In this document: positions 6,705 to 63,707 of the stretch, in pieces
Numbering within the stretch: the first letter of the stretch is position 1
How the letters are laid out: every line of letters starts with the position of its first letter
Assembly: GCA_003345545.1 (NCBI GenBank)
Contig: PRDH01000081.1
Location: forward strand, 32,001 to 96,000
Origin: Candidatus Thorarchaeota archaeon
GTDB taxonomy: Archaea; Asgardarchaeota; Thorarchaeia; Thorarchaeales; Thorarchaeaceae
Direction of reading: 5' to 3'
DNA: 64,000 bases
Made by a program: the position numbers and the translations under genes
Notes under the pieces: generated by a model
Told to the model about the DNA's origin: nothing
What the model saw: only the letters and a program-made list of their open reading frames with translations
The model's database searches: none

Positions 6705-8801
6705 CTACTTGCAGATTTCGCCATACTTCCTCTTGAAGTTCGCAGCCATCTCCGGAAAACCATACTTGACCCAGGCTCTGTACGCCAAATCGAATGTTTC
6801 CCTTGCCAGTTGAGGGTACTTCTTGTTGTCCAGTCGCTTGCACGCGTCCATTAGTATCCCTACATACTGGCTCGACATCATGGCTACCTCGTAGTCGTAT
6901 TTTGTTGGGTCTTGAACTGCAATTCGGTTGAGTGCAATCACCCTGTCTACGACTTCTTCCAACTCCTTCGCCTTCAAGGACCCCGTGACCAGAGAGGCAT
7001 GAAAACTAGCAGACATTATATCATCCCTGCAGATTATGCCCCTAGAAACAAACCACTCTTGGGTGTCCAATATGACCTCCACGCATCTCTTGAGAACTAC
7101 TATCCTCTCATCGCGCTTGAGCAGCCTTGCAGCAAGCGCAGTCAGTGCAGTTACTGCATTTCCGAGGCTTGTGGCATAGGCCTCTGGTTTTGTTATCTGT
7201 TCTGCGTCAATCGTATTGACGTCAAGCGATTTCATAGCGATATAGATCAGACGCGTTTCATCTTCAGATAAGATGTCTGCCCTTGTAAGAATCGGACTAA
7301 GAGAATTCGCAACTACGAATACCGAGAATTGCACCTGTGCCTTCTGCCATTCTCCGTCTATGGTACTATAGATATCCAAGAGAAACTCTAATGATTGATT
7401 CAGATGCTGTTCGCGAGCATCGCCAGTTGCCAAGAAGTAGTACTCTGCGTAAGCAACACCTAGACTCTGGAATACACTATCTAGTGTGTAGTTGAAGATG
7501 GGAATCTCAGTTGTCAGTAGGCTCCTGAAGTAGTCTCGATACAACATGAGGACTTCCTCGAGTATCTTCCTGCGTTCGTCTATTGTGAGCACAGGGGATT
7601 CAGCCAGGGCGGTAAGAATCGCGATGTAATTCTGCAGCTTCAGAGAAGCTGTGACACCAATCTCGATTCCCTTTCCCTCTTTCTTTAACTCCCATAACAG
7701 ATCCGGGTCAAGCACCCAGTTGATATTTCCAAGGATACCTGTAATCTTCGACTTATATGCTCCTAACTCGTCACGAAAACCATCATAGCTTGTGATTGAG
7801 TAGAGTTTTTTGAATAACTTGCCTCGTTCATCAATAGCCTCAATGAATGTACAATACACATCTGACTTCTCTCTATACATATCGAGTATTCTCGCGGCGA
7901 ACTCCGGGTAATCTACAACTCTCACATCAAAAAACAGAAAACCAAGTAGAAGATGCTCATCATCATTCCTGAACTCAAAATGCTTCACTGCCTCTCTGAA
8001 TGCCCGAGAGTAATCAGCAGGAATGAGGTCCCCAGCTGTAAAGCCTACGAGTGTCCGGGCAAGATCTGTGAAAGGATAGTCCTGTGGAAGAGCTGCGGCA
8101 ATTCTCTTCAGTTCTGCCATCGGAGGTGAAACCGCCTTAGTCATGGTATGCGTCAATGCACCCATCTTGAGACAGAAGACGCTGGCCAGTGCCCCCTCTT
8201 GACTCATCGCCACAGCACATGCTCTATCGAACTCTCCCTGAAGGGCCAATTCAAGTGCATCATCGAGAGTTCCCTTCGCTTTTGTCTTGAGATTATTCCA
8301 CTTCTCAATGGATTCTGCCCTACTGAAAAGTGACTCCACGTCCTGAAGAGCCTTGGAGAGTTTCTTATCTTGCATCAAGACCTTCAGTGTGGGATTCCAG
8401 ATGCCGTATATTGTTTCCGCGAATCCTGTTTCAATGTGATCTCGTGTATAGGTATGAAGAATCTGATCAATTGTCCTTGTGTGAGTGTCACCCACTAATC
8501 CATCTGCTGCCACTAAGTCCGAGTCATCAATTGCATCTGCTATCACTCGGAGGAGGCTATCCATGTAGTCTTCTGCCCTGTCTACAAGTGCGACAACTGT
8601 GTAGCCCTTCTTGCACTCCGTCACAATCAGAGTGTTCTCCCTAAAACCCAGCTTTCTGACCTCTCCGCTCCCTATGACATTACTCAGTGCCTTTGCAGCC
8701 TCTATCAGGGGGCCAAGGATCATCTCACCATCTGCATCCATTGAGCTCTTGATCTTGATAGGGACGCCGCCTGTGGTCAGGACACCGATGAGCCGAATCA
8801 T
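6705..8801 (-). CDS. Hypothetical protein, N-terminal longin-like domain and long helical region
   Basis: 698-aa ORF; N-terminus shows a beta-beta-alpha-beta-beta-beta-alpha pattern typical of longin folds (by eye). Confidence 0.55.
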   Translation of the reverse strand: MIRLIGVLTTGGVPIKIKSSMDADGEMILGPLIEAAKALSNVIGSGEVRKLGFRENTLIVTECKKGYTVVALVDRAEDYMDSLLRVIADAIDDSDLVAADGLVGDTHTRTIDQILHTYTRDHIETGFAETIYGIWNPTLKVLMQDKKLSKALQDVESLFSRAESIEKWNNLKTKAKGTLDDALELALQGEFDRACAVAMSQEGALASVFCLKMGALTHTMTKAVSPPMAELKRIAAALPQDYPFTDLARTLVGFTAGDLIPADYSRAFREAVKHFEFRNDDEHLLLGFLFFDVRVVDYPEFAARILDMYREKSDVYCTFIEAIDERGKLFKKLYSITSYDGFRDELGAYKSKITGILGNINWVLDPDLLWELKKEGKGIEIGVTASLKLQNYIAILTALAESPVLTIDERRKILEEVLMLYRDYFRSLLTTEIPIFNYTLDSVFQSLGVAYAEYYFLATGDAREQHLNQSLEFLLDIYSTIDGEWQKAQVQFSVFVVANSLSPILTRADILSEDETRLIYIAMKSLDVNTIDAEQITKPEAYATSLGNAVTALTALAARLLKRDERIVVLKRCVEVILDTQEWFVSRGIICRDDIMSASFHASLVTGSLKAKELEEVVDRVIALNRIAVQDPTKYDYEVAMMSSQYVGILMDACKRLDNKKYPQLARETFDLAYRAWVKYGFPEMAANFKRKYGEICK

Positions 8802-30301: not shown

Positions 30302-30408
30302 TGGTGGACCGGGCGAGATTTGAACTCGCGGCCTTCTGAAGTGTCGGCCTGTGGCTAACACCAGCAAGCTTGCGAATCAGACGATCTACCGGTCTGATCT
30401 ACCGGCCC
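30302..30408 (-). tRNA. tRNA-Ala(CGC) with a 30-nt anticodon-loop intron (30341-30370); CCA encoded
   Basis: GGGCCGG/CCGGTCC acceptor with G3:U70, TCTGA/TCAGA anticodon stem, TTCAAAT T-loop. Confidence 0.93.
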
Positions 30409-53437: not shown

Positions 53438-55849
53438 CTAACGCATCGACTTCTGAAATCTTCCAATGATTTCATCTTGAATTGCTTTTCCTAAGTCCAC
53501 ATAATATGCACTGTAACCTGCAACTCTAACGACCAGGTTCCTGTATGAGCTGGGATTTGCCTGTGCGTCACGAAGAGTTTCCGGGTCGATCAGATTGAAT
53601 TGTATATGCATGCCACCAAGCTCTACGTAGGACTTCAGTAGGGATACGAGGGACTCCAAACCATCATCTCCTGCTATGTAGCTGGGATCCAAAGAGAGCG
53701 TGAAGGCCATTCCGTTAGGATAGAGTGTATAATCAATACTTGTGACTGAACGAAGGACTGCAGTCAGACCATTGGCGGGGGCTGAAACCACAGGCGAAGC
53801 CCCATTACTCAAGGGGGTTGACGGTAGTCTTCCACTAGGCAGAGCGCCGGTGAATAGACCAAAGGGTATGTGTGTAGTCACTGAGTACATACCAGCGATA
53901 AAAGACCCACCTCTGATGTTCTTGTGTTTCTCTACTTCCTCGCTATATATACCTGCCACGAGTTGGGCATAGTCATCTACGAATCTTTCGTCATTGCCGT
54001 ACTTTGGAGCTTTGTTCAGCAGTAGTTGTCTTAGCGGCTCATCATCTTCAAATCCACCTCTCAGAGCGGTGATGAGTTCGCTCATGCTCGATTTCTTCTC
54101 CTTGAATACAATCTGGTCTATTGCTGCAAGGGAATCTGCAACATCAGCAATACCAACTCCCTGAACTCCAGTGAAGTTGTACCTTGCCGAACCTGTCGTT
54201 ATATCTCGACCAATCTCAAAGCAGTCCTCTACACAAAGTGAGAGTAATGGTGTTGGCATCATTTCTATATTCAATTGCTCGAAAGATGCAGAGCCCTCCG
54301 CCATGAGTCCTACCAAGTATGAAACCTGTTTTCGAAATGCCTGAATAACATCATCCATTGACTGGAACTGCAAAGGGTCACCCGTCTTTAGACCAAGTTC
54401 TGCTCCTAATAGTAGGCTTTTGCCGTCATTCAATGCGAGCTCCAAACACATGGCGAGGTTGAAAAGCGCGGCATCCGATGAAGTGAAGCTATTTCCAAAT
54501 GGGGCCAGTTCGACACATCCAACAGTTGCGTAGTTTCTTGCCTCCTTTGTAGGGATTCCCTGTCGTTCCCATGATTTGACAATCGTTTCATCGTTGAAGA
54601 CTGCTATATTATTCGAACCCGACGCAACAATTGCTGCAATCTCTTTCAAGAGTCGTGATGGACTATTTCGATGAATCCGAACATGGACATTTGGCAGGGG
54701 GAGCCCCACATCCTTTGTTGCTTCTAAAATCAGGTACGTCATGTCATTTGTTGTGTCAATTCCTTCTCTATCGAAGCCACCAATCGTCGCTGCTTGGGTA
54801 GTCAGTAACCCCTCAAAGTACAATCCAGAAAAGCTGTCATAGACTGGGACATGCTCGTTTGTCTTTATCCACAACATCTCTAGAAGTTCTAGTGCTTCCT
54901 CCCTTGTCAGTTTGCCCGATTTGATATCATTCTCATAGAATGGCTGTAGGTATTGATCAATTCGTCCCATTGAGATGGCTTGACCATCATAGGCCTCAAT
55001 ACTGAGAGCGAGATGAGTGAACCTAATGAACTGAATGGCCTCATGGAAATTCCTTGGCGGTCTGGCAGGAACCCATTGACATATCTCAGCAATCCTCTCA
55101 AGCTCTTCCTTTCTCTGGATGTCTTTTTCACCCTTCGCCATCATCGCTGCTTTTTTGGAATAGCGATGCGCGAATTGGATTATTGCATCAGCCACTGTCT
55201 TGGTTGCCTTATAGAAGTGGGTCTTGTTAAGATGCTCTTGGCCTGTTTTCGAACTGTGTTCGCCAATTCGTTTCTCAGCCATCTTGCTGAGTCTATCAAA
55301 GCCTATAGAAAAGAGCATAGGGTAGTTTATGCTTAAATGTCCGAATCCCGCCACTTCTGTGAGAAGAAACACAGAACCAGTGTACAACGTTTCCATTATC
55401 TTCTCAGGAGTCCTTTTTTCAGCCTGTGCCAACATGGACCTTTCCGCCCAATATGACGCAATATCATCCTGCACAGTCTTGATGTCTTCAGGCGTGACTT
55501 CTATCACTCGGCAATCTCGTGTCTTTAATCCTTCAAGCTCAGGAATTATTCGAGATCCGTGAGCCTCTGGATAAATCATAGCACCGCGAATCTTGTCTGC
55601 AATAGTCCCAACAACAAGTTCCTCGGGGAATATTCTCACAGAAATGTGTTCTAGCAGGTATGCCAGAGCTTTTGCTTGTCGGAGTATCTGTGGCTCCCCT
55701 TCAGTCGTCTTCATGGACTCGGTATACAATCTGGTCCTCTCGATACATAGATGTGTCGCAGACTCCAGAATACGACTCCGCATTGCCTGGCTCTTCGAAA
55801 GCATCGTTTTCACTGCTGATTCTATGCATACTCTGTCCATATATCTCAT
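53438..55849 (-). CDS. Glycyl radical enzyme (PFL2/glycerol dehydratase-like)
   Basis: GCVE Cys loop and C-terminal RVAGYS glycyl radical motif. Confidence 0.93.
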   Translation of the reverse strand: MRYMDRVCIESAVKTMLSKSQAMRSRILESATHLCIERTRLYTESMKTTEGEPQILRQAKALAYLLEHISVRIFPEELVVGTIADKIRGAMIYPEAHGSRIIPELEGLKTRDCRVIEVTPEDIKTVQDDIASYWAERSMLAQAEKRTPEKIMETLYTGSVFLLTEVAGFGHLSINYPMLFSIGFDRLSKMAEKRIGEHSSKTGQEHLNKTHFYKATKTVADAIIQFAHRYSKKAAMMAKGEKDIQRKEELERIAEICQWVPARPPRNFHEAIQFIRFTHLALSIEAYDGQAISMGRIDQYLQPFYENDIKSGKLTREEALELLEMLWIKTNEHVPVYDSFSGLYFEGLLTTQAATIGGFDREGIDTTNDMTYLILEATKDVGLPLPNVHVRIHRNSPSRLLKEIAAIVASGSNNIAVFNDETIVKSWERQGIPTKEARNYATVGCVELAPFGNSFTSSDAALFNLAMCLELALNDGKSLLLGAELGLKTGDPLQFQSMDDVIQAFRKQVSYLVGLMAEGSASFEQLNIEMMPTPLLSLCVEDCFEIGRDITTGSARYNFTGVQGVGIADVADSLAAIDQIVFKEKKSSMSELITALRGGFEDDEPLRQLLLNKAPKYGNDERFVDDYAQLVAGIYSEEVEKHKNIRGGSFIAGMYSVTTHIPFGLFTGALPSGRLPSTPLSNGASPVVSAPANGLTAVLRSVTSIDYTLYPNGMAFTLSLDPSYIAGDDGLESLVSLLKSYVELGGMHIQFNLIDPETLRDAQANPSSYRNLVVRVAGYSAYYVDLGKAIQDEIIGRFQKSMR

Positions 55850-55911
55850 GCTCTCTACCAGAACATAGAAACGCGATGCAATGGTCAGGTTGACCCGAGA
55901 TTATAATGTAG

Positions 55912-57756
55912 TTAACTGGGCTCCTTCCCACGCAGTTTGAGCAATGATTTAGCGAAACGCGGTCTTACAAGTCTATCTAGAATCTGCATTGAGGGTATTG
56001 CCGCTACTAATGCAAAAGCCCCTATTCCAGCTTCAACTGGGAAAACATAACCAAAGTACTCAAACACTCCACTGAAGATGACATAGAGCACAGCAATGAC
56101 CACGAGCAGTGGTAGCCACAGTACAACAGCAGCTCTGAATTGAAATCGATAGCGAAACGCAGAGAGTGCAATGATGAAACAGATGCCCGTGAGCACTGCT
56201 GGTAGAAACCAGCCTCCTAGCAAGAAGCTCTCGCCGTATAGCTCAATGAATCCCAATACAGAGAGACCTGTTCGTCCTTGAATTGTAAAGAATGGTAGAA
56301 TGAAGCCTGCACCAAGTGCGAAGACTCCAATCATATAGGGAATCTCCCGGATGAGATGAATCCTCCGAGGGTGCCATATGTTGAAATGGAGAAGGAGCAA
56401 TATTCCCAGGCTAGATAGAATGAGCAACGCCGGAAAGAAGATAGAACCTGCGCTTCCTACGAAAATCCTCGATGATATCTGAATCGAGTCCTCTTGCATG
56501 ATGACTATAAAGAAGAGGACCTTTCCATTTGCAAGCGGTACTATCTCTCCTGTGTAATACTTGAAGAGAGCTCCACTTCCGGGCTCCAACTCAGTGGAGA
56601 ACCATACGGCCCCCGGTTCACTTGATCTCCAGCACAGGAAGACACTATCCGCATTCTCTACCTCTGCTATGACTTTGATTGTGCTTCCCTGAAGCGTTAT
56701 CTCGTTGTTGTACAAGACTTCGTATGATGGAATGGGTGCGCCATCTCTGAATTTACAGTCAATCCACCTGACGATGTTATGACTCCATTGAGGATTGACT
56801 CCGTGGCCCCAGTTTGGAACGATGTTCAGGGTAAGTTCAGCATCTATTGACTCGATAGTGTCCATCATTGACGTAATCGGAAAGAACGGGTCATTAGTGC
56901 CAATTATCATGAAAACAGGGTCAGTCAGCAGTCTCGTATATGCAAGAGGGTCAAACCACCTTATTATATTGGTCATTTCCACGGATCCAATTTGATATGT
57001 GGGCACTACTATACTATTGAGCAGAGACCCTGAAGTCAATGAGTTGAGGAGATTCCCTCCAGCAATCATCGGGACTGACCCATCAACACGCGTATCAATC
57101 CCCGAGAGGATGAATGTAGCCAGCGCTCCCATTGAGTTGCCTGCAACAACCATGGCATCAGTTCGTACCTGAGGTACTATTTCAAGGAGTGTCAACGCTC
57201 GGGACGCAGCCCAGACAGAGTGATAGAGGCTAGAATCCTGAGGCCCATTTGTCACGCTCAAAAAAGTGAATGAATTGAGAGCTGGATATCCTGTGGAGCT
57301 GCCCGACCCTGGTTGATCAATTCCCATGACTACAAACCCTGCCGCGGCTAACTCCCTCAGCATCTGCATGAACTCTGCATATTGCTCACCAAAACCATGA
57401 AGGTACAGAATTGCAGGTGTCGGCGTCGTGAGATTCTGTCTCATGAGAATAATGGAGTTTATTCTTACGGCTTCGCCATTGAACATTTCACTCATGTAAT
57501 CAAAGTACCACTCGTGAACAGAAACTGTCGCATTTTGATACTCAACATCAGAAGTAGTGATCGAATGATTCTTCACATCAAGAGGTGATACAAGCGCGTC
57601 AGTGATGTTCCAAAAACTGGTATCAAAGTCGTCTTCCGAGGGGGGAGCCGCAGTTCTCATAGGAAAGTTCAAGCCTGCGAAGAATAGCATAGCTGTGATA
57701 CTGCCCATGAACAGGACCATCACAGCAACTGCAGCAACTGATACTCCCGTTTCCAT
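55912..57756 (-). CDS. Membrane-anchored alpha/beta hydrolase
   Basis: LHGFG, GNSMG, GTND and WGH triad-like motifs; C-terminal TMs. Confidence 0.82.
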   Translation of the reverse strand: METGVSVAAVAVMVLFMGSITAMLFFAGLNFPMRTAAPPSEDDFDTSFWNITDALVSPLDVKNHSITTSDVEYQNATVSVHEWYFDYMSEMFNGEAVRINSIILMRQNLTTPTPAILYLHGFGEQYAEFMQMLRELAAAGFVVMGIDQPGSGSSTGYPALNSFTFLSVTNGPQDSSLYHSVWAASRALTLLEIVPQVRTDAMVVAGNSMGALATFILSGIDTRVDGSVPMIAGGNLLNSLTSGSLLNSIVVPTYQIGSVEMTNIIRWFDPLAYTRLLTDPVFMIIGTNDPFFPITSMMDTIESIDAELTLNIVPNWGHGVNPQWSHNIVRWIDCKFRDGAPIPSYEVLYNNEITLQGSTIKVIAEVENADSVFLCWRSSEPGAVWFSTELEPGSGALFKYYTGEIVPLANGKVLFFIVIMQEDSIQISSRIFVGSAGSIFFPALLILSSLGILLLLHFNIWHPRRIHLIREIPYMIGVFALGAGFILPFFTIQGRTGLSVLGFIELYGESFLLGGWFLPAVLTGICFIIALSAFRYRFQFRAAVVLWLPLLVVIAVLYVIFSGVFEYFGYVFPVEAGIGAFALVAAIPSMQILDRLVRPRFAKSLLKLRGKEPS

Positions 57757-58130: not shown

Positions 58131-58192
58131 AACCTGACCCAAGTCGTTGTGACACAAGGAAGTGCAGATAGCGGAAGTCTTTTGTGGAGACG

Positions 58193-58350
58193 TTCACTAT
58201 AGTTAACTTGTCCAGGCAGGTGGGTACGCAAGGGACACATAACATTCGTGTACTGAGCTCATCGCTCAAAACGGCGAAAGAACGATGGGTGATTAAGACA
58301 TTACGGGAATGGGTCGAACAAGTGTCTTAGGCTTACGGCCCGCTTGGACA
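58193..58350 (+). ncRNA. Unidentified structured RNA candidate, copy A (with upstream operator motif)
   Basis: Diverged direct repeat of 62600-62756; closing stem TGTCCAGGC/GCTTGGACA; compensatory changes. Confidence 0.6.
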
Positions 58351-58414
58351 CCTTATTTTGTGCTGAATCGAAACTCTGAATTTGTTATTGTGACTGAAGT
58401 GACCATAGTGATGG

Positions 58415-59332
58415 ATGTTCCTTCTTAATGAAACTCATAGTGAGGATGGCAACGTAGTGGAAATAGTGAAGTGGGATGGTAGGCGAGAGCAGTTCGACCT
58501 GGACAAATTGCGACATAGCATACTCCGGCTAGGGGCACCTCTGGAGCTTGCCAAGAGTGTTTCAGAACAAATAGAGAGAGAAGCTTACTCTGGTATGACC
58601 TCCAAAGAGATCTTTGATTTGGTCACTGCCAAGCTGAGGACGCATGAACCCGCCATCTCTCTTCGAGAGGACCTAAAGACTGGACTTGCAAGAATGAAGG
58701 GCGGGTCCGAATTCGAGGAGTACGTTCGCCTTATCTTTCGAGCTCATGGATATAGTGTGAAGGGCAATACAGTAGTTCAAGGTCGATGCGTGACGCATGA
58801 AATAGATGGAATTGCTGAGCGAGATGATGAATGTATCTACCTTGAGATCAAGCATCATTCAAGCCCTCACAGCTACACTCCTTTTGATGTCACTTTGGCG
58901 GCCAAGGCAAAATGGGATGACCTACAGTCAGGACACGAATCGGGTTCCACGAGCTATTGTTTCAATCGTGTTCTTGTTGTCAGTAACACCAGATTGAGTG
59001 CGCATGCGCGTCAGTATGCAGAATGCGTAGGTATTGGTCATTTGGGGTGGAATACACCGCCTGGTCGTGGTCTAGATTGCATGATTGAAGAGAAGGGTCT
59101 CTATCCAATCACTGTTCTGAAGGCTCTGCATGAGGAAGAACGAGATATCCTATCGGGGAATGGAATCCTGACACTCCAGCAACTTGAAGCGGCCACAACA
59201 GGAGTAGATGGCATTCAGGAATCACGTTTCAATGAGTTGAAAGATCAAGCGGCCAAAATCATGAAGACACGTCTGCAAGAGAACTGTGACTCTGTGCGTC
59301 AAGACCTGGCAGATACTAAAGGTCGCAAATAG
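58415..59332 (+). CDS. ATP-cone domain fused to a PD-(D/E)XK (Mrr-like) nuclease domain
   Basis: IVKWDGRREQFDLDKL ATP cone; FEEYV...HEIDG...LEIKHH. Confidence 0.85.
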   Translation: MFLLNETHSEDGNVVEIVKWDGRREQFDLDKLRHSILRLGAPLELAKSVSEQIEREAYSGMTSKEIFDLVTAKLRTHEPAISLREDLKTGLARMKGGSEFEEYVRLIFRAHGYSVKGNTVVQGRCVTHEIDGIAERDDECIYLEIKHHSSPHSYTPFDVTLAAKAKWDDLQSGHESGSTSYCFNRVLVVSNTRLSAHARQYAECVGIGHLGWNTPPGRGLDCMIEEKGLYPITVLKALHEEERDILSGNGILTLQQLEAATTGVDGIQESRFNELKDQAAKIMKTRLQENCDSVRQDLADTKGRK

Positions 59333-59452
59333 CACAAAAGGCCTCCACTGATTATTCCTTGGAACAACTCCGATTGCATCCTTGAGCACCAGCCGACATC
59401 CCCTTTCGCAAGACTCATATTGAAACGAATCATATTAACAATAGTGAATACT

Positions 59453-59698
59453 ATGAAGACGATGTCCAAGCAGACAAAGCTCACTTCAGAGAAAATCATG
59501 GAGAAGGCCAAGGAGTACTTCGTTGGCAGGTTTGGATTCAGGATTGTTGAAGAAACAGCCAATTGTTGTGTGGCTTTCGAAAACAATCTTGGTTTTGTCA
59601 ATGTACAAGTCCTGAACAAGGGTGACTGCCGAGAAATAACGCTGACCACCAGAGAATGGGAATATCAGATTGGAGAATTCCTTGGGAAGCTGAAGTAG
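59453..59698 (+). CDS. Hypothetical protein
   Basis: ORF ending TREWEYQIGEFL; start re-set downstream of the operator motif. Confidence 0.7.
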   Translation: MKTMSKQTKLTSEKIMEKAKEYFVGRFGFRIVEETANCCVAFENNLGFVNVQVLNKGDCREITLTTREWEYQIGEFLGKLK

Positions 59699-59739
59699 AG
59701 AATCACTAGTGTACTGTCCACATGATTACTAAATAAGAG

Positions 59740-59997
59740 GTGAAAGGAATGGAAGAGAGAGTCGAGGGCATTATTGTGGCATCAGTGGTAGAGCCAATTA
59801 GCGACACTGACATGAAGGCTGGCTTCATAACAGTCAAAACATCTGAAGATGACTACGTGAAGTTGGAGGTCGGCAGCTACACTACCTTTGCCACTCTGGA
59901 GGAAGGAGAGAAAGTATTGGTTCAGGCGGAAACGCTGGGATCCACAGGAGTGATATACGCCAAGAGTGTGATTCTCAGCGAACGTTCCGCTAAATGA
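59740..59997 (+). CDS. Hypothetical protein (possible OB fold)
   Basis: 85-aa beta-rich ORF with gaggtga SD-like sequence. Confidence 0.6.
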   Translation: MKGMEERVEGIIVASVVEPISDTDMKAGFITVKTSEDDYVKLEVGSYTTFATLEEGEKVLVQAETLGSTGVIYAKSVILSERSAK

Positions 59998-60021
59998 GTG
60001 ACCCCATTGTTTTTACTACGA

Positions 60022-61653
60022 CTAGGTTTCCTCCATATATCGATATACGAACTGCCGTGGGGAGATGAAATTCTCCTTGATGGTCCTCGGTGAAACCCAC
60101 CGCAGGAGGTTGATTCTACTACCCGCTTTGTCATTCGTCCCTGAAGCTCGAGCTCCACCAAAGGGCTGACGGCCGACCACTGCTCCCGTAGGCTTGTCAT
60201 TGATGTAGAAATTGCCAGCAGCGTTTTCAAGTATGTTCGTGGCAAGTAGTATTGCCTCTCTGTCCTTGGCAAAGATTGAACCAGTAAGAGCATATGGTGA
60301 GGTCTCGTCACAGAGATGCAAGGTCTTCTCATATTCCCTATCGGGGTAGACAAAGACTGTCAGAACAGGTCCAAAGATCTCATCTTCCAGCATCTTGGAC
60401 CTTGGATTCGTGGAGAGAACGATTGTGGGCTCTATGAAATAGCCTACCAAGTCATTGTAGGTCCCCCCTGCTAGGATCTCCAAGTCTGGCGATTCTCTTG
60501 CATACTCAATGTACCTGACTATCTTGTCGAATGCTTCCTTATCGATTATCGCATTGACCAGAGTTGTAAAGTCCTCGACATCACCCACACGGATTCTCTT
60601 GAGTGACTCGAGTAGCTTCTTTCTGACATGTGGCCAGATTGATTTAGGAATATACGTTCGAGAAGCTGCAGAGCACTTCTGACCTTGGTATTCAAAGGCG
60701 CCACGGACCAATGCCGTTACGAGAGCATCTACATCTGCAGACTTGTGGGCGACTACAAATCCCTTGCCGCCTGTTTCCCCAATGAGTCGAGGGTATGTTC
60801 TATATGTGTGAATATTCCCGGCGACTTGCTTCCACATCTCTCTGAAGGTTGCTGTACTGCCTGTGAAATGGACGCCTGCCAATGCCGGATGGTTCAGTAC
60901 TGGGTCTCCTACTTCTTGGCCTTTGCCCGGAACGAAGTTGATGACACCTGGGGGAATTCCGGCTTCCATCAGTACTCTCATCACGTGGTATGCCACATAG
61001 ACAGCTGTTGAGGCTGGTTTCCAGACCACGACATTTCCCATCATGGCCGGCGCAGTTGGAAGGTTGCCCATGATGCTGACAAAGTTGAATGGAGTCACAG
61101 CAAAGACAAAGCCTTCAAGAGGCCTGTACTCCATCCTATTCCATTCGTCAGCTCCAGAAGCAACCTGTGTTTCATAGATCTCTTGTGCGTAGTATGCATT
61201 GAAACGCAGAAAATCAACAAGCTCATTTGCAGTATCTATCTCCGCCTGGTAGACATTCTTGCTCAGGCCGAGCATACTAGCCGCATTCAACATCAGCCGG
61301 CTTGGTCCTGCAAGTTGATTAGCGGCCCTGAGGAAAATTGCCAAACGATCAGGCCAGGAAGTACGAGCCCAAGTCCTCCTCGCTTCTAGAGATGCCTCTA
61401 TGGCCTTCAACACTTCCTCCTCTCCTGCCATGTGATACTCCGCCAAAACATGTTGATGACTGTGCGGCATCACAGACTGTTTCAGTCTTCCAGTCCGTAC
61501 CTCTTCTCCTCCAATGATCAGAGGAATTTCTAGCCTCTTGGATTTGAGTTCCTCGAGTTTCTTCTTGAGTTCTACCCTCTCTTCACTGCCCACAAGATAT
61601 CCCAAGGTTGGTTCGTTGAAGGGCTTTGGAACAACGAAACTTGCATTTTGCAT
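60022..61653 (-). CDS. pruA: L-glutamate gamma-semialdehyde (P5C) dehydrogenase
   Basis: FTGSTATF, GETGGK, AFEYQGQKCSA, NDKPTGAVVG and SGTNDKAG motifs. Confidence 0.95.
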   Translation of the reverse strand: MQNASFVVPKPFNEPTLGYLVGSEERVELKKKLEELKSKRLEIPLIIGGEEVRTGRLKQSVMPHSHQHVLAEYHMAGEEEVLKAIEASLEARRTWARTSWPDRLAIFLRAANQLAGPSRLMLNAASMLGLSKNVYQAEIDTANELVDFLRFNAYYAQEIYETQVASGADEWNRMEYRPLEGFVFAVTPFNFVSIMGNLPTAPAMMGNVVVWKPASTAVYVAYHVMRVLMEAGIPPGVINFVPGKGQEVGDPVLNHPALAGVHFTGSTATFREMWKQVAGNIHTYRTYPRLIGETGGKGFVVAHKSADVDALVTALVRGAFEYQGQKCSAASRTYIPKSIWPHVRKKLLESLKRIRVGDVEDFTTLVNAIIDKEAFDKIVRYIEYARESPDLEILAGGTYNDLVGYFIEPTIVLSTNPRSKMLEDEIFGPVLTVFVYPDREYEKTLHLCDETSPYALTGSIFAKDREAILLATNILENAAGNFYINDKPTGAVVGRQPFGGARASGTNDKAGSRINLLRWVSPRTIKENFISPRQFVYRYMEET

Positions 61654-61792
61654 TCAAATCACCGGTTATTAACTATGGTTAATACATTTATAAAGTCGCA
61701 GATACTCACGAGTTTCTTGAGGCCTACTTCACCCGGACACTACATTGTCCTCTCCAGACATGCAATATCCGGCCAGGCTCTCATGTGATAGC

Positions 61793-62359
61793 TTAGTTCA
61801 GCGATAGAGTTTCCCTGTTGGTAGTCGTGTACGTGTCGTACGCAACTCTGAGTATACTCCTGATCTTCTCAGTATGCCATGATCCTCTCTGCCGATCAAA
61901 GAGCTCATCAGATGCATCAACTGACATGACCTCGCCAATGAAGAGTACATGGTTTCCTACAGGGATCTCATTAACGACCTTGCATTCAAATGATGCAACA
62001 GCCTCTCCTATCGATACAGCGTTGACATTCCACCCACTTCGCTGACTAGTAAGACCAGCTGCTGTAATCTTATCCTTGTGCTGCCTACCGGTATGAGTAC
62101 CTGCCCACACTGTCTGTTTCAGGATATCTGTTGATGGCACATTCACTGTGAATACACCAGCACTTCTGATCATCTGAGATGTGTGCTTGTTCGGTGAGAT
62201 TGAGATTCCAAAGAGTGGAGGCCTCACAGAGAGAGGTGTTGCCCATTCCACAGCTAGTACCTCCGTTGCTCCATTACTGCTATCCGCCACAGTCACTAAG
62301 AAGGTCTGACGTGGTGCTGCAACTCCAGAGAAATGACTTCTACTACACGACTGCCTCAT
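61793..62359 (-). CDS. Flavin reductase-family protein
   Basis: SVRPPL...GVFTVNVP...FECKV...GNHVLFIGEV; start re-set to MRQSC. Confidence 0.88.
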   Translation of the reverse strand: MRQSCSRSHFSGVAAPRQTFLVTVADSSNGATEVLAVEWATPLSVRPPLFGISISPNKHTSQMIRSAGVFTVNVPSTDILKQTVWAGTHTGRQHKDKITAAGLTSQRSGWNVNAVSIGEAVASFECKVVNEIPVGNHVLFIGEVMSVDASDELFDRQRGSWHTEKIRSILRVAYDTYTTTNRETLSLN

Positions 62360-62599
62360 GATATTAACTATAGTGAAATCCTCTATTAAATGATACGATA
62401 GGCACATTCACTGACCGCTCATCGAGCAACATCCGAGAGCCGCATTCGCCGAGCATGGATATGCGATTGGTGACTCCCAGAGCATTCTTGCGTATCGACA
62501 ATTCAATGGAGTTGGCTCTGTGATTCAGCGAAAGATCAAGTTCAGTAAATCAATCCAGTACATCTATTCTGCAGGCATCAGAATGTTTATATTGATTTA

Positions 62600-62756
62600 T
62601 TCACTATAGTTAATTTACCCAAGCGGATGAGTACGCAAGGGACACAGAGCATTCTCGCACTGAGCTCGTCACTTAAAACGACTGAAGAGCGATGGGTTAC
62701 AAAGACGTCTCGGGAATGGGTCGTATAAGCGTCCTAGGCTTATAGCCCGCTTGGGT
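62600..62756 (+). ncRNA. Unidentified structured RNA candidate, copy B (with upstream operator motif)
   Basis: Closing stem ACCCAAGCGG/CCGCTTGGGT; tttatatt TATA-like box upstream; T-rich tail. Confidence 0.6.
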
Positions 62757-62819
62757 CTTCATCTTTCTTTGGCTACAGCTGTTCACTCATCATATCTGAG
62801 CAGTTCAAGCACTTCATCT

Positions 62820-63707
62820 CTATAGTCCGCTGACCTTTGTCTGAATCAATTCCTTTAGTTTCTTCTTATCCAGTGCACGCTGAAATAGAGGTCTCTTGTC
62901 CACGTCATAGATGCCTGAGTTCTCTTCGAATGTGGCCCTGGGAAGACCTCTGTAGAGAACACCAAGTGGATACTTATCATGTTCGATGGCTTTCTCAAAT
63001 GCGGCCAATCGATCGGTCGAATCATATGCACCATCCAAGTAGTATGTGTTGTTCTTGAACCACCGAAACGTGTTGATCTTGTTGTATGTGACACATGGTT
63101 GGAAAATGTCTACAAGCGAGAACCCTTTGTGCTGGATTGCTTTCTTCATTATCTCTTTTGTTTGCTCTGTGTCACCAATGAAGGCCCTTGCCACAAATGA
63201 CGCATTCATTGCCACGCCTAGGGCAAGTGGATTGAAAGGTTCAGAGGTCACACCTTGCCTATCCGCAGTCTGCACAAGTGTTTCAAAGCCTCTCTGGCTA
63301 GTGGGAGATGCTTGGCCCTTAGTCAGACCGTACACCATGTTATTGTGCACAAAGACACTGATATCCGGGTTGCGAAGCATGGTATGCATCAAGTGATTGC
63401 CGCCTTCCCCATACATGCATCCATCACCACTCTCTGCAATGACTGTTAGCTCTGGATTAGCGGCTTTGATTGCCATTGCCGCTGGTAGGGCCCTTCCATG
63501 CAGTCCATTGAACACGTTTGTGCGTATGTAGTGCGGTGTCTTTGCAGCCTGACCTATGCCCGAAACTATGACAGTCTCTTGGGGCTTCAAATCGAGTTCC
63601 GCAAGTGCGAGCATCAATGCACTCCTGATTTGGTAGTTGCCGCAGCCTGGACACCAAGCTATGTCGTACTGAACATCGTTCATTATTTCAAAATCATCCG
63701 GCTTCAA
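62820..63707 (-). CDS. 2-oxoacid:ferredoxin oxidoreductase beta subunit
   Basis: WCPGCGN, LHGR, GDG...[15 protein letters not shown] and PCVTYN motifs. Confidence 0.95.

Follow-up and report, generated by a model that had tools for sequence, protein, structure and literature searches.

A duplicated small structured RNA gene with a shared operator, found in few Asgard genomes, at a Candidatus Thorarchaeota locus

The window analysed here is a stretch of 64,000 nt from contig C81 (PRDH01000081.1, positions 32,001 to 96,000) of a Candidatus Thorarchaeota archaeon, whose 2.69-Mb metagenome-assembled genome (MAG) is 93% complete; an archaeal 16S rRNA gene is present in the window. Two direct repeats of ~142 nt each, copies A and B, lie between genes and are separated by a 4.2-kb cargo of protein-coding genes (Table 1). 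Identity between them is 77-80%, and the genome contains no further copy. An initial annotation had described them as diverged intergenic copies of a structured RNA, and this description was borne out, since both copies lie where it placed them and every stem and sequence block that it quoted is literally present. The similarity between the copies is free of gaps from an upstream TGCAG, ~45 nt before the RNA, to a point just beyond the closing stem. No reading frame is open throughout all copies of the family, and both A and B fold better than dinucleotide shuffles (z = -3.7 and -2.9, respectively). We regard the RNA gene as very probably real, and copies A and B represent a genuine new family of small structured non-coding RNA.

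Homologues were sought by BLAST and with three covariance models, of which R1 was applied to all 86 genomes of the family, R2 to 151 genomes of the phylum, and R3 to the 40 most complete genomes of the family. One copy each was found in three of the 27 other species of the genus (G001, G003, and G010), and a further single copy, scoring 63 bits, was found in G184, a member of another Asgard family. The lineage of G184 is truly distant, because the proteins encoded on its contig are just 27-47% identical to their best matches in the source genome. Four metagenome contigs also carry the RNA, three of them identical to G010 and one differing at 4 positions. No copy was detected in the 58 genomes of the other genera of the family or in the 18 other genomes of the G184 family, the R3 search over the 40 most complete genomes added nothing new, and an exact-pattern scan of 400 genomes of the phylum yielded no further homologue. 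Viral contigs gave no match to the strict pattern; a looser pattern returned 18 loci representing 5 distinct A/T-rich sequences, which we consider chance matches multiplied by redundancy, because several of them recur across contigs and they have neither a covariance-model match nor similarity in the flanks. A single 21-bit match in G045 (L031:6427-6738) lies inside the open reading frame (ORF) of an Rpp21-like RNase P protein and was discarded as a false positive, which calls for caution with low scores of this A-rich covariance model.

In total, the RNA occurs in 5 of the ~400 Asgard genomes searched, and the distinct sequences number seven, six of them from one genus. The family is thus real but rare and patchy, and the gene is an accessory one that is patchily inherited. 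The lone RNA of G001 is orthologous to copy B, with 80-82% identity, and is 72-73% identical to copy A. The sequence blocks that the initial annotation called invariant are constant between A and B but not across the family, where the constant parts are GACACA, the loop YAAAACGRCKRAAGA, AAGAC, GGGYYG, and CUUGG.

The RNA belongs to no recognised class. When the whole window was compared with the 4227 models of Rfam 15, taking a score at or above the gathering threshold as the family criterion, only the 16S rRNA and one tRNA were returned, in agreement with the first impression formed of the element. At E<=10, copy A with 100 nt on either side had no match, and copy B gave only sub-threshold noise located outside or antisense to the RNA. 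A disguised archaeal signal recognition particle (SRP) RNA, which would be ~300 nt long with helix 6/8 motifs, was considered and rejected, given the length of 142 nt and the absence of a match to RF01857. Moreover, the canonical SRP RNA (309-313 nt) is encoded elsewhere in 26 of 27 genomes of the genus, including the carriers G001, G003, and G010, and its co-occurrence with the new RNA speaks against their identity. In the source assembly itself RF01857 was not found, most likely owing to a gap in the 93%-complete MAG. RNase P RNA was set aside, as the genome has its own RNaseP_arch on contig C12 (151.9 bits). A C/D-box small RNA (sRNA) was likewise rejected, since terminal C (RUGAUGA) and D (CUGA) boxes are absent from both copies, the length is 142 versus 50-70 nt, and no C/D family of Rfam matches on the same strand. 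The C/D-box-like match to sR17 at 62772-62821 (minus strand, 19.4 vs 36 bits) in the porB 3' region was not retained, its C' box not being kept in G001. In a tRNA gene of the window (30305-30408, minus strand), the anticodon loop contains a presumed intron, an insertion of 33 nt. A full-text literature search found no described regulatory or structured small RNA of Asgard archaea.

The predicted fold is a long irregular nested hairpin, P1-P2-P2b-P3-P4, and it is supported by covariation. An unbiased alignment of six sequences, made with MAFFT, shows 88% pairing for this fold and 11 pairs that have changed on both sides; sliding the 3' partners by 1-3 columns leaves no more than 5 such pairs. 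After the addition of G184, the alignment of seven sequences, which was fitted to the model, is 86% paired and contains 20 double-change pairs, versus 9.3±1.8 in shuffles (0/500 reach 20) and 3-9 in slid alignments. Most of the signal resides in P1, P3, and P4, with 8, 6, and 4 double-change pairs, respectively. The compensatory changes first noticed between the two copies therefore persist once homologues are added. The plus strand is assigned as the RNA strand because ~29 G-U cells would be A-C mismatches if read on the opposite strand; a minus-strand RNA was rejected on the G-U content of the covarying helices together with the promoter and the tail, as the minimum free energy (MFE) alone leaves the strand undecided.

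The stems proposed initially fared differently. The closing stem was correct and corresponds to P1. The GTGGGT/GCTTAC stem is present as P2, but its register is ambiguous, with 81% pairing versus 87% for GUAC.GC/GC.UUAC. The CATTC/GAATG pairing is also real, yet it forms the upper half of P3, the best-covarying nested helix, rather than a pseudoknot; G003 has CGUCU/AGAUG at this position. The GACAT/GTGTC stem exists in A and B but is 79% paired over the family, being broken in G001 and G003 and weak in G184, and it shares its 3' strand with P2b (GGGACAC/GYGUCYU), which is 87% paired. The nested topology with P2b is preferred because both P2b strands shorten together in G184, to GAAC/GUUC, while AAGAC remains unchanged. 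The shared 3' strand may nevertheless allow a conformational switch between its two partners.

The most conserved element is the 12-nt apical loop of P4, YAAAACGRCKRAAGA, which is identical in copy A and G184; the hairpin is capped by this invariant 12-nt loop, AAAACGRCKRAA. Its CGRC is complementary to GYCG in the internal loop just below P3, and the two pair in 28/28 cells, the column pair 74-114 being A-U, G-U, or G-C. With one double change, these pairings are suggestive of an apical-loop pseudoknot, CGRC/GYCG, which we retain as a candidate. P3 and P4 are nearly equal in length (10 and 11 bp), so that the loop would reach the GYCG site if the RNA bent sharply between the two helices. Three other local motifs were tried and rejected: a hairpin around AAGAC forms in A, G003, G010, and G184 in differing registers and was not taken as conserved, a K-turn at the base of P4, judged by eye, would need a G at column 91 that varies, and the strands of an 11-nt tetraloop receptor, also judged by eye, are not opposite one another.

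All five genus-level promoters share the same arrangement at conserved spacing, namely TGCAG, an A/T-rich TATA box, the palindrome TTCACTATAGTTAA, and then P1. B, G001, and G003 have a clear TATA box, that of A is weak, and the palindrome is kept before the RNA in G001, G003, and G010. G184 has its own TATA box and T-tail, the palindrome being absent there. A T-rich tail directly 3' of P1, reported initially for the two copies, is found in all seven sequences. The ATG lies exactly 4 nt past the same palindromic box at three protein genes, encoding the flavin reductase, the 81-aa protein (59453), and the C26 disulfide oxidoreductase, and these genes appear to give leaderless mRNAs. Transcription should accordingly start ~4 nt after the box, and by analogy the first base of the RNA would be the first base of P1. 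The starts of the longest ORFs at 61793-62407 (minus strand) and 59420-59698 (plus strand) are probably wrong, the box being inside both; the ATGs exactly 4 nt past it, at 62359 (minus) and 59453 (plus), imply leaderless mRNAs of 188 and 81 codons. Each copy would thus constitute a complete transcription unit with a promoter, an operator, a predicted start at P1, and a putative T-rich terminator.

The box is not confined to the RNA. The pattern TT[AC]AC[TA]AT[AG]GT[GT]AA has 10 strict sites in the genome versus 0.2 expected, and besides the two RNA copies it occurs at 8 other promoters. The five sites outside the window precede genes for a glyoxalase-family protein, the pyridine-nucleotide disulfide oxidoreductase (C26), an AhpC/TSA peroxiredoxin, an MFS transporter with DUF3795, and an FTR1 iron permease. 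The degenerate box GTGACCATAGTGAT within the cargo would be a sixth site of the local cluster. It is likely that the RNA belongs to this regulon. Archaeal repressors act at sites 3' of the TATA box, the position that the palindrome occupies, and OxsR, a single-domain TrmB-type factor, is reported to repress when bound there (PMC9426492). OxsR also shares the redox-stress theme, although its own motif is CG-rich and unlike the box. Among TrmB-family operators, the glycolytic motif of the Thermococcales, TATCAC-N5-GTGATA (PMC4158304, PMC4706686), resembles the box in its TCAC/GTGA half-sites and differs in spacing (N4 in the box vs N5) and flanks. The 65-aa winged-helix protein encoded directly upstream of copy A was rejected as an obligate RNA partner or box binder, since the protein and the RNA occur apart; it is present without the RNA in G017 and G026. 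In G010 another palindrome, TTCCTAG-N6-CTAGGAA (L021 ~7240-7262), lies between the RNA tail and an FAD/NAD oxidoreductase gene and is probably the operator of that gene.

Table 1. Coordinates of the two RNA copies, their helices and control elements, the neighbouring genes, and the box sites (window positions unless a contig is given).
Feature	Position	Strand	Details
Winged-helix protein, 65 aa	57933-58130	+	Weak IclR/TrmB/MarR helix-turn-helix matches; directly upstream of copy A
Copy A promoter region	58163-58192	+	TGCAG 58163-58167; weak A/T-rich TATA-like stretch ~58177-58186
Copy A operator	58193-58206	+	14-bp palindrome TTCACTATAGTTAA, between TATA box and predicted start
Copy A RNA	58209-58350	+	MFE -51.8 kcal/mol, z = -3.7
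Copy A P1	58209-58219/58340-58350	+	
Copy A P2	58224-58229/58331-58336	+	
Copy A P2b	58232-58238/58322-58328	+	
Copy A P3	58243-58252/58302-58311	+	
Copy A P4	58257-58267/58280-58290	+	
Copy A apical loop	58268-58279	+	
Copy A candidate pseudoknot	58272-58275 with 58313-58316	+	
Copy A T-rich tail	58351-58362	+	TTATTTT 58353-58359; putative archaeal oligo-T terminator
Cargo between copies	58363-62569		4.2 kb; absent from the G001 locus
Degenerate box GTGACCATAGTGAT	58399-58412		Ends 2 nt before the ATG (58415) of the ATP-cone/Mrr_cat gene; missed by the strict pattern
ATP-cone/Mrr_cat protein	58415-59332	+	Cargo
81-aa protein	59453-59698	+	Cargo
85-aa protein	59740-59997	+	Cargo
Aldehyde dehydrogenase	60022-61653	-	Cargo
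Flavin reductase	61793-62359	-	Cargo
Copy B promoter region	62570-62599	+	TGCAG 62570-62574; TATA box TTTATAT 62586-62592
Copy B operator	62600-62613	+	Palindrome TTCACTATAGTTAA
Copy B RNA	62616-62757	+	Orthologue of the single G001 copy
Copy B P1	62616-62626/62747-62757	+	
Copy B P2	62631-62636/62738-62743	+	
Copy B P2b	62639-62645/62729-62735	+	
Copy B P3	62650-62659/62709-62718	+	
Copy B P4	62664-62674/62687-62697	+	
Copy B apical loop	62675-62686	+	
Copy B T-rich tail	62758-62772	+	CTTCATCTTTCTTTG
Strict boxes in window	58193, 59435, 61669, 62364, 62600		Copy A, 81-aa gene, aldehyde dehydrogenase, flavin reductase, copy B
Strict boxes elsewhere	C17:19190, C26:44936, C35:6007, C55:21656, C69:27047		

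We favour, with modest confidence, the reading that this ~142-nt structured RNA gene of a new family is patchily inherited, stress-regulated, and trans-acting. Transcription would begin ~4 nt after the operator, the first bases forming the 5' strand of P1, and would end at the T-rich tract that immediately follows the 3' strand of P1. Pairing of CGRC with GYCG may bring P4 back alongside P3 and give a compact pseudoknotted body. A repressor probably silences the RNA until it is released along with a redox/iron-stress regulon, because the same operator is found at the peroxiredoxin, disulfide oxidoreductase, glyoxalase, FTR1, flavin reductase, and aldehyde dehydrogenase genes. In the least certain step, the RNA would engage a protein or mRNAs with its conserved exposed loops, much as OxyS, RyhB, or SHOxi act, and would not serve as a leader for the gene that follows. 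That it acts in trans and not in cis seems somewhat probable; the regulon operator, expected in the promoter of a trans-acting stress sRNA, lies between the TATA box and the predicted start in all five genus-level promoters.

Several points weigh against this reading. The covariation comes from seven distinct sequences, six of which belong to a single genus, the seven-sequence alignment leans towards the structure to which it was fitted, and the counts of double changes ignore phylogeny. The start, the end, and the induction of the RNA are all deduced from sequence, and the redox/iron theme of the regulon is based on the Pfam names of ten genes. When loop segments were screened by duplex energy against 2391 start regions, the best candidates stood ~4-6 standard deviations out; A and B had none of these in common, and no regulon gene was among them. 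The high degree of structure, the invariant loops, and the possible pseudoknot look more like a ligand- or protein-binding RNA than a base-pairing sRNA. G003 and G010 keep both the RNA and the box, yet the winged-helix protein was not detected in either. Finally, a co-directional ORF follows ~60-180 nt downstream at 4/6 loci. In a possible but unlikely variant, the RNA would be a compact pseudoknotted sensor, or would bind a protein, and would spread horizontally between Asgard archaea as a self-contained promoter-operator-RNA module that joins the redox/iron regulon of its host; its gene might also serve as a homology anchor for cassettes.

The co-directional ORFs bear most directly on an improbable alternative, in which the RNA is a cis-acting leader or riboswitch whose metabolite aptamer controls read-through via P1 and the T-tract, with B and the G001 copy as orphaned aptamers. 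Such ORFs lie 59, 65, 73, and 177 nt downstream of the RNA at A, G184, G010, and G003, respectively, and P1 abuts the T-tract. The compact fold, the invariant unpaired nucleotides, and the possible pairing of the apical loop with an internal loop would suit an aptamer, and proteins with an ATP-cone neighbour the RNA at two loci. However, the neighbouring genes differ at every RNA locus, and those downstream, encoding an ATP-cone/Mrr nuclease, an FAD/NAD oxidoreductase, and uncharacterised ORFs of 64 and 155 aa, have neither a common function nor a common pathway. The two ATP-cone neighbours, the Mrr_cat nuclease (58415-59332) and a ribonucleotide reductase (L023:7602-9614) divergent from the G003 copy, stand at unrelated loci and may be a coincidence. 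Copy B, as remarked in the initial annotation, has no co-directional gene downstream; the next gene (62820-63707, minus strand) converges on it, and the same layout is kept in G001, so that in two species the RNA has been maintained facing a converging gene. Also arguing against a riboswitch role, the gene that follows copy A carries a degenerate box of its own just before the ATG, a box-like promoter from which it would be leaderless like other genes of the regulon. The RNA also has its own regulated promoter, and known riboswitch families match neither A nor B. With a TATA box, an operator, and a T-tract of its own, it conforms to the earlier view of an independent RNA rather than a riboswitch.

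The arrangement of the locus suggests a second, decidedly improbable alternative, in which the ~190-bp RNA gene serves mainly as a recombination site for swapping accessory modules between lineages. In G001 the winged-helix gene (91% identical to that upstream of copy A), the RNA, and the converging porB are contiguous, whereas in the source genome copy A, the cargo, and copy B lie between the same flanks, porB at the right of copy B being syntenic with G001. The copies thus bracket a 4.2-kb segment that is absent from G001. The patchy distribution of the RNA (4/28 genomes of the genus and 1/19 in another family) and its ~60% identity between lineages whose contig proteins are 27-47% identical are also in line with such a role. 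On the other hand, no integrase or recombinase is found in or beside the cargo. The comparison with an integron-like attC-type boundary is mixed, as the cargo is absent from G001 but neither an adjacent integrase nor a clean crossover pattern is seen. The sites that differ between A and B agree with G001 in a mosaic pattern rather than in blocks, and Campbell-type chimeric copies were rejected for want of a clean crossover. There are only two copies, 77-80% identical, and their compensatory changes, including G-U pairs, indicate selection on RNA rather than on DNA; the anchor role is in any case compatible with an RNA function. Further upstream, a PFL-like glycyl-radical enzyme and a 614-aa alpha/beta hydrolase (53438-57756) are encoded between the metallo-beta-lactamase-fold and winged-helix genes, where the G001 counterpart (L022) contains nothing but two ORFs of 69 aa each, and the neighbourhood as a whole is a hot spot of insertion.

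It is very improbable that the RNA is catalytic or mobile, whether as a small ribozyme that cleaves itself or as the RNA component of a selfish element. Its size, compact fold, possible pseudoknot, patchy distribution, and duplication would fit, but even at E<=10 Rfam 15 offers no ribozyme match, the loci have no reverse transcriptase, transposase, or nuclease as a constant neighbour, genomes contain 1-2 copies, and viral contigs gave no real matches. A DNA repeat devoid of RNA function, such as an element like a miniature inverted-repeat transposable element (MITE) or a duplicated promoter fragment, is barely credible, for although P1 resembles terminal inverted repeats and the repeat includes promoter DNA, there are two copies where a MITE or insertion sequence would be expected in many, target-site duplications are absent, pairing in the helices survives by double changes and G-U wobbles that are meaningless for DNA, and the homologues in other genomes are single copies with the same promoter and tail.

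The preferred reading, a stress-regulated RNA acting in trans, provides a candidate in the closest known relatives of eukaryotes with defined ends, a covariation-supported fold, a testable tertiary contact, and a promoter tied to a 10-site regulon. The short RNA suits probing, pull-down, and searches of sediment metatranscriptomes, and the box can serve as bait for the transcription factor. The patchy spread of the RNA and its place on both sides of the cargo bear on the exchange of accessory genes in these genomes. Should the variant of a mobile sensor or protein-binding module be true, it would be the first riboregulator described for Asgard archaea.

Bacterial stress sRNAs are known under the control of transcription factors, for example OxyS under OxyR and RyhB under Fur. 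An archaeal counterpart is SHOxi, the oxidative-stress sRNA of Haloferax volcanii (PMC8583180). These transcription factor-controlled sRNAs appear to be the closest functional analogues of the new RNA, which like them would be a small independent transcript with its own promoter and terminator, and whose operator is common to redox/iron genes that are presumably co-induced. There is no similarity in sequence or fold, the new RNA being far more structured, with paired ends, five helices, and invariant loops. In overall shape, one long irregular end-closed hairpin with conserved internal loops, it is akin to 6S RNA and the bacterial 4.5S SRP RNA; these are universal within their groups, whereas the new RNA has no Rfam match and the narrow distribution described above. 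SreA/SreB and EutX/Rli55 are trans-acting RNAs derived from riboswitches, and they share with it an aptamer-like fold on a free-standing short transcript ending at a terminator, although the new RNA matches no known aptamer class and is linked to no shared pathway. Its form brings it closer to the orphan complex-folded non-coding RNAs, the raiA, OLE, ROOL, and GOLLD motifs, all of which are in Rfam. Covarying helices, invariant unpaired nucleotides, a possible tertiary pseudoknot, patchy spread, and the lack of a conserved neighbour are common to both. The new RNA matches none of their models and is distinguished from them by its much smaller size (~142 nt), its archaeal origin, and a recognisable regulated promoter.

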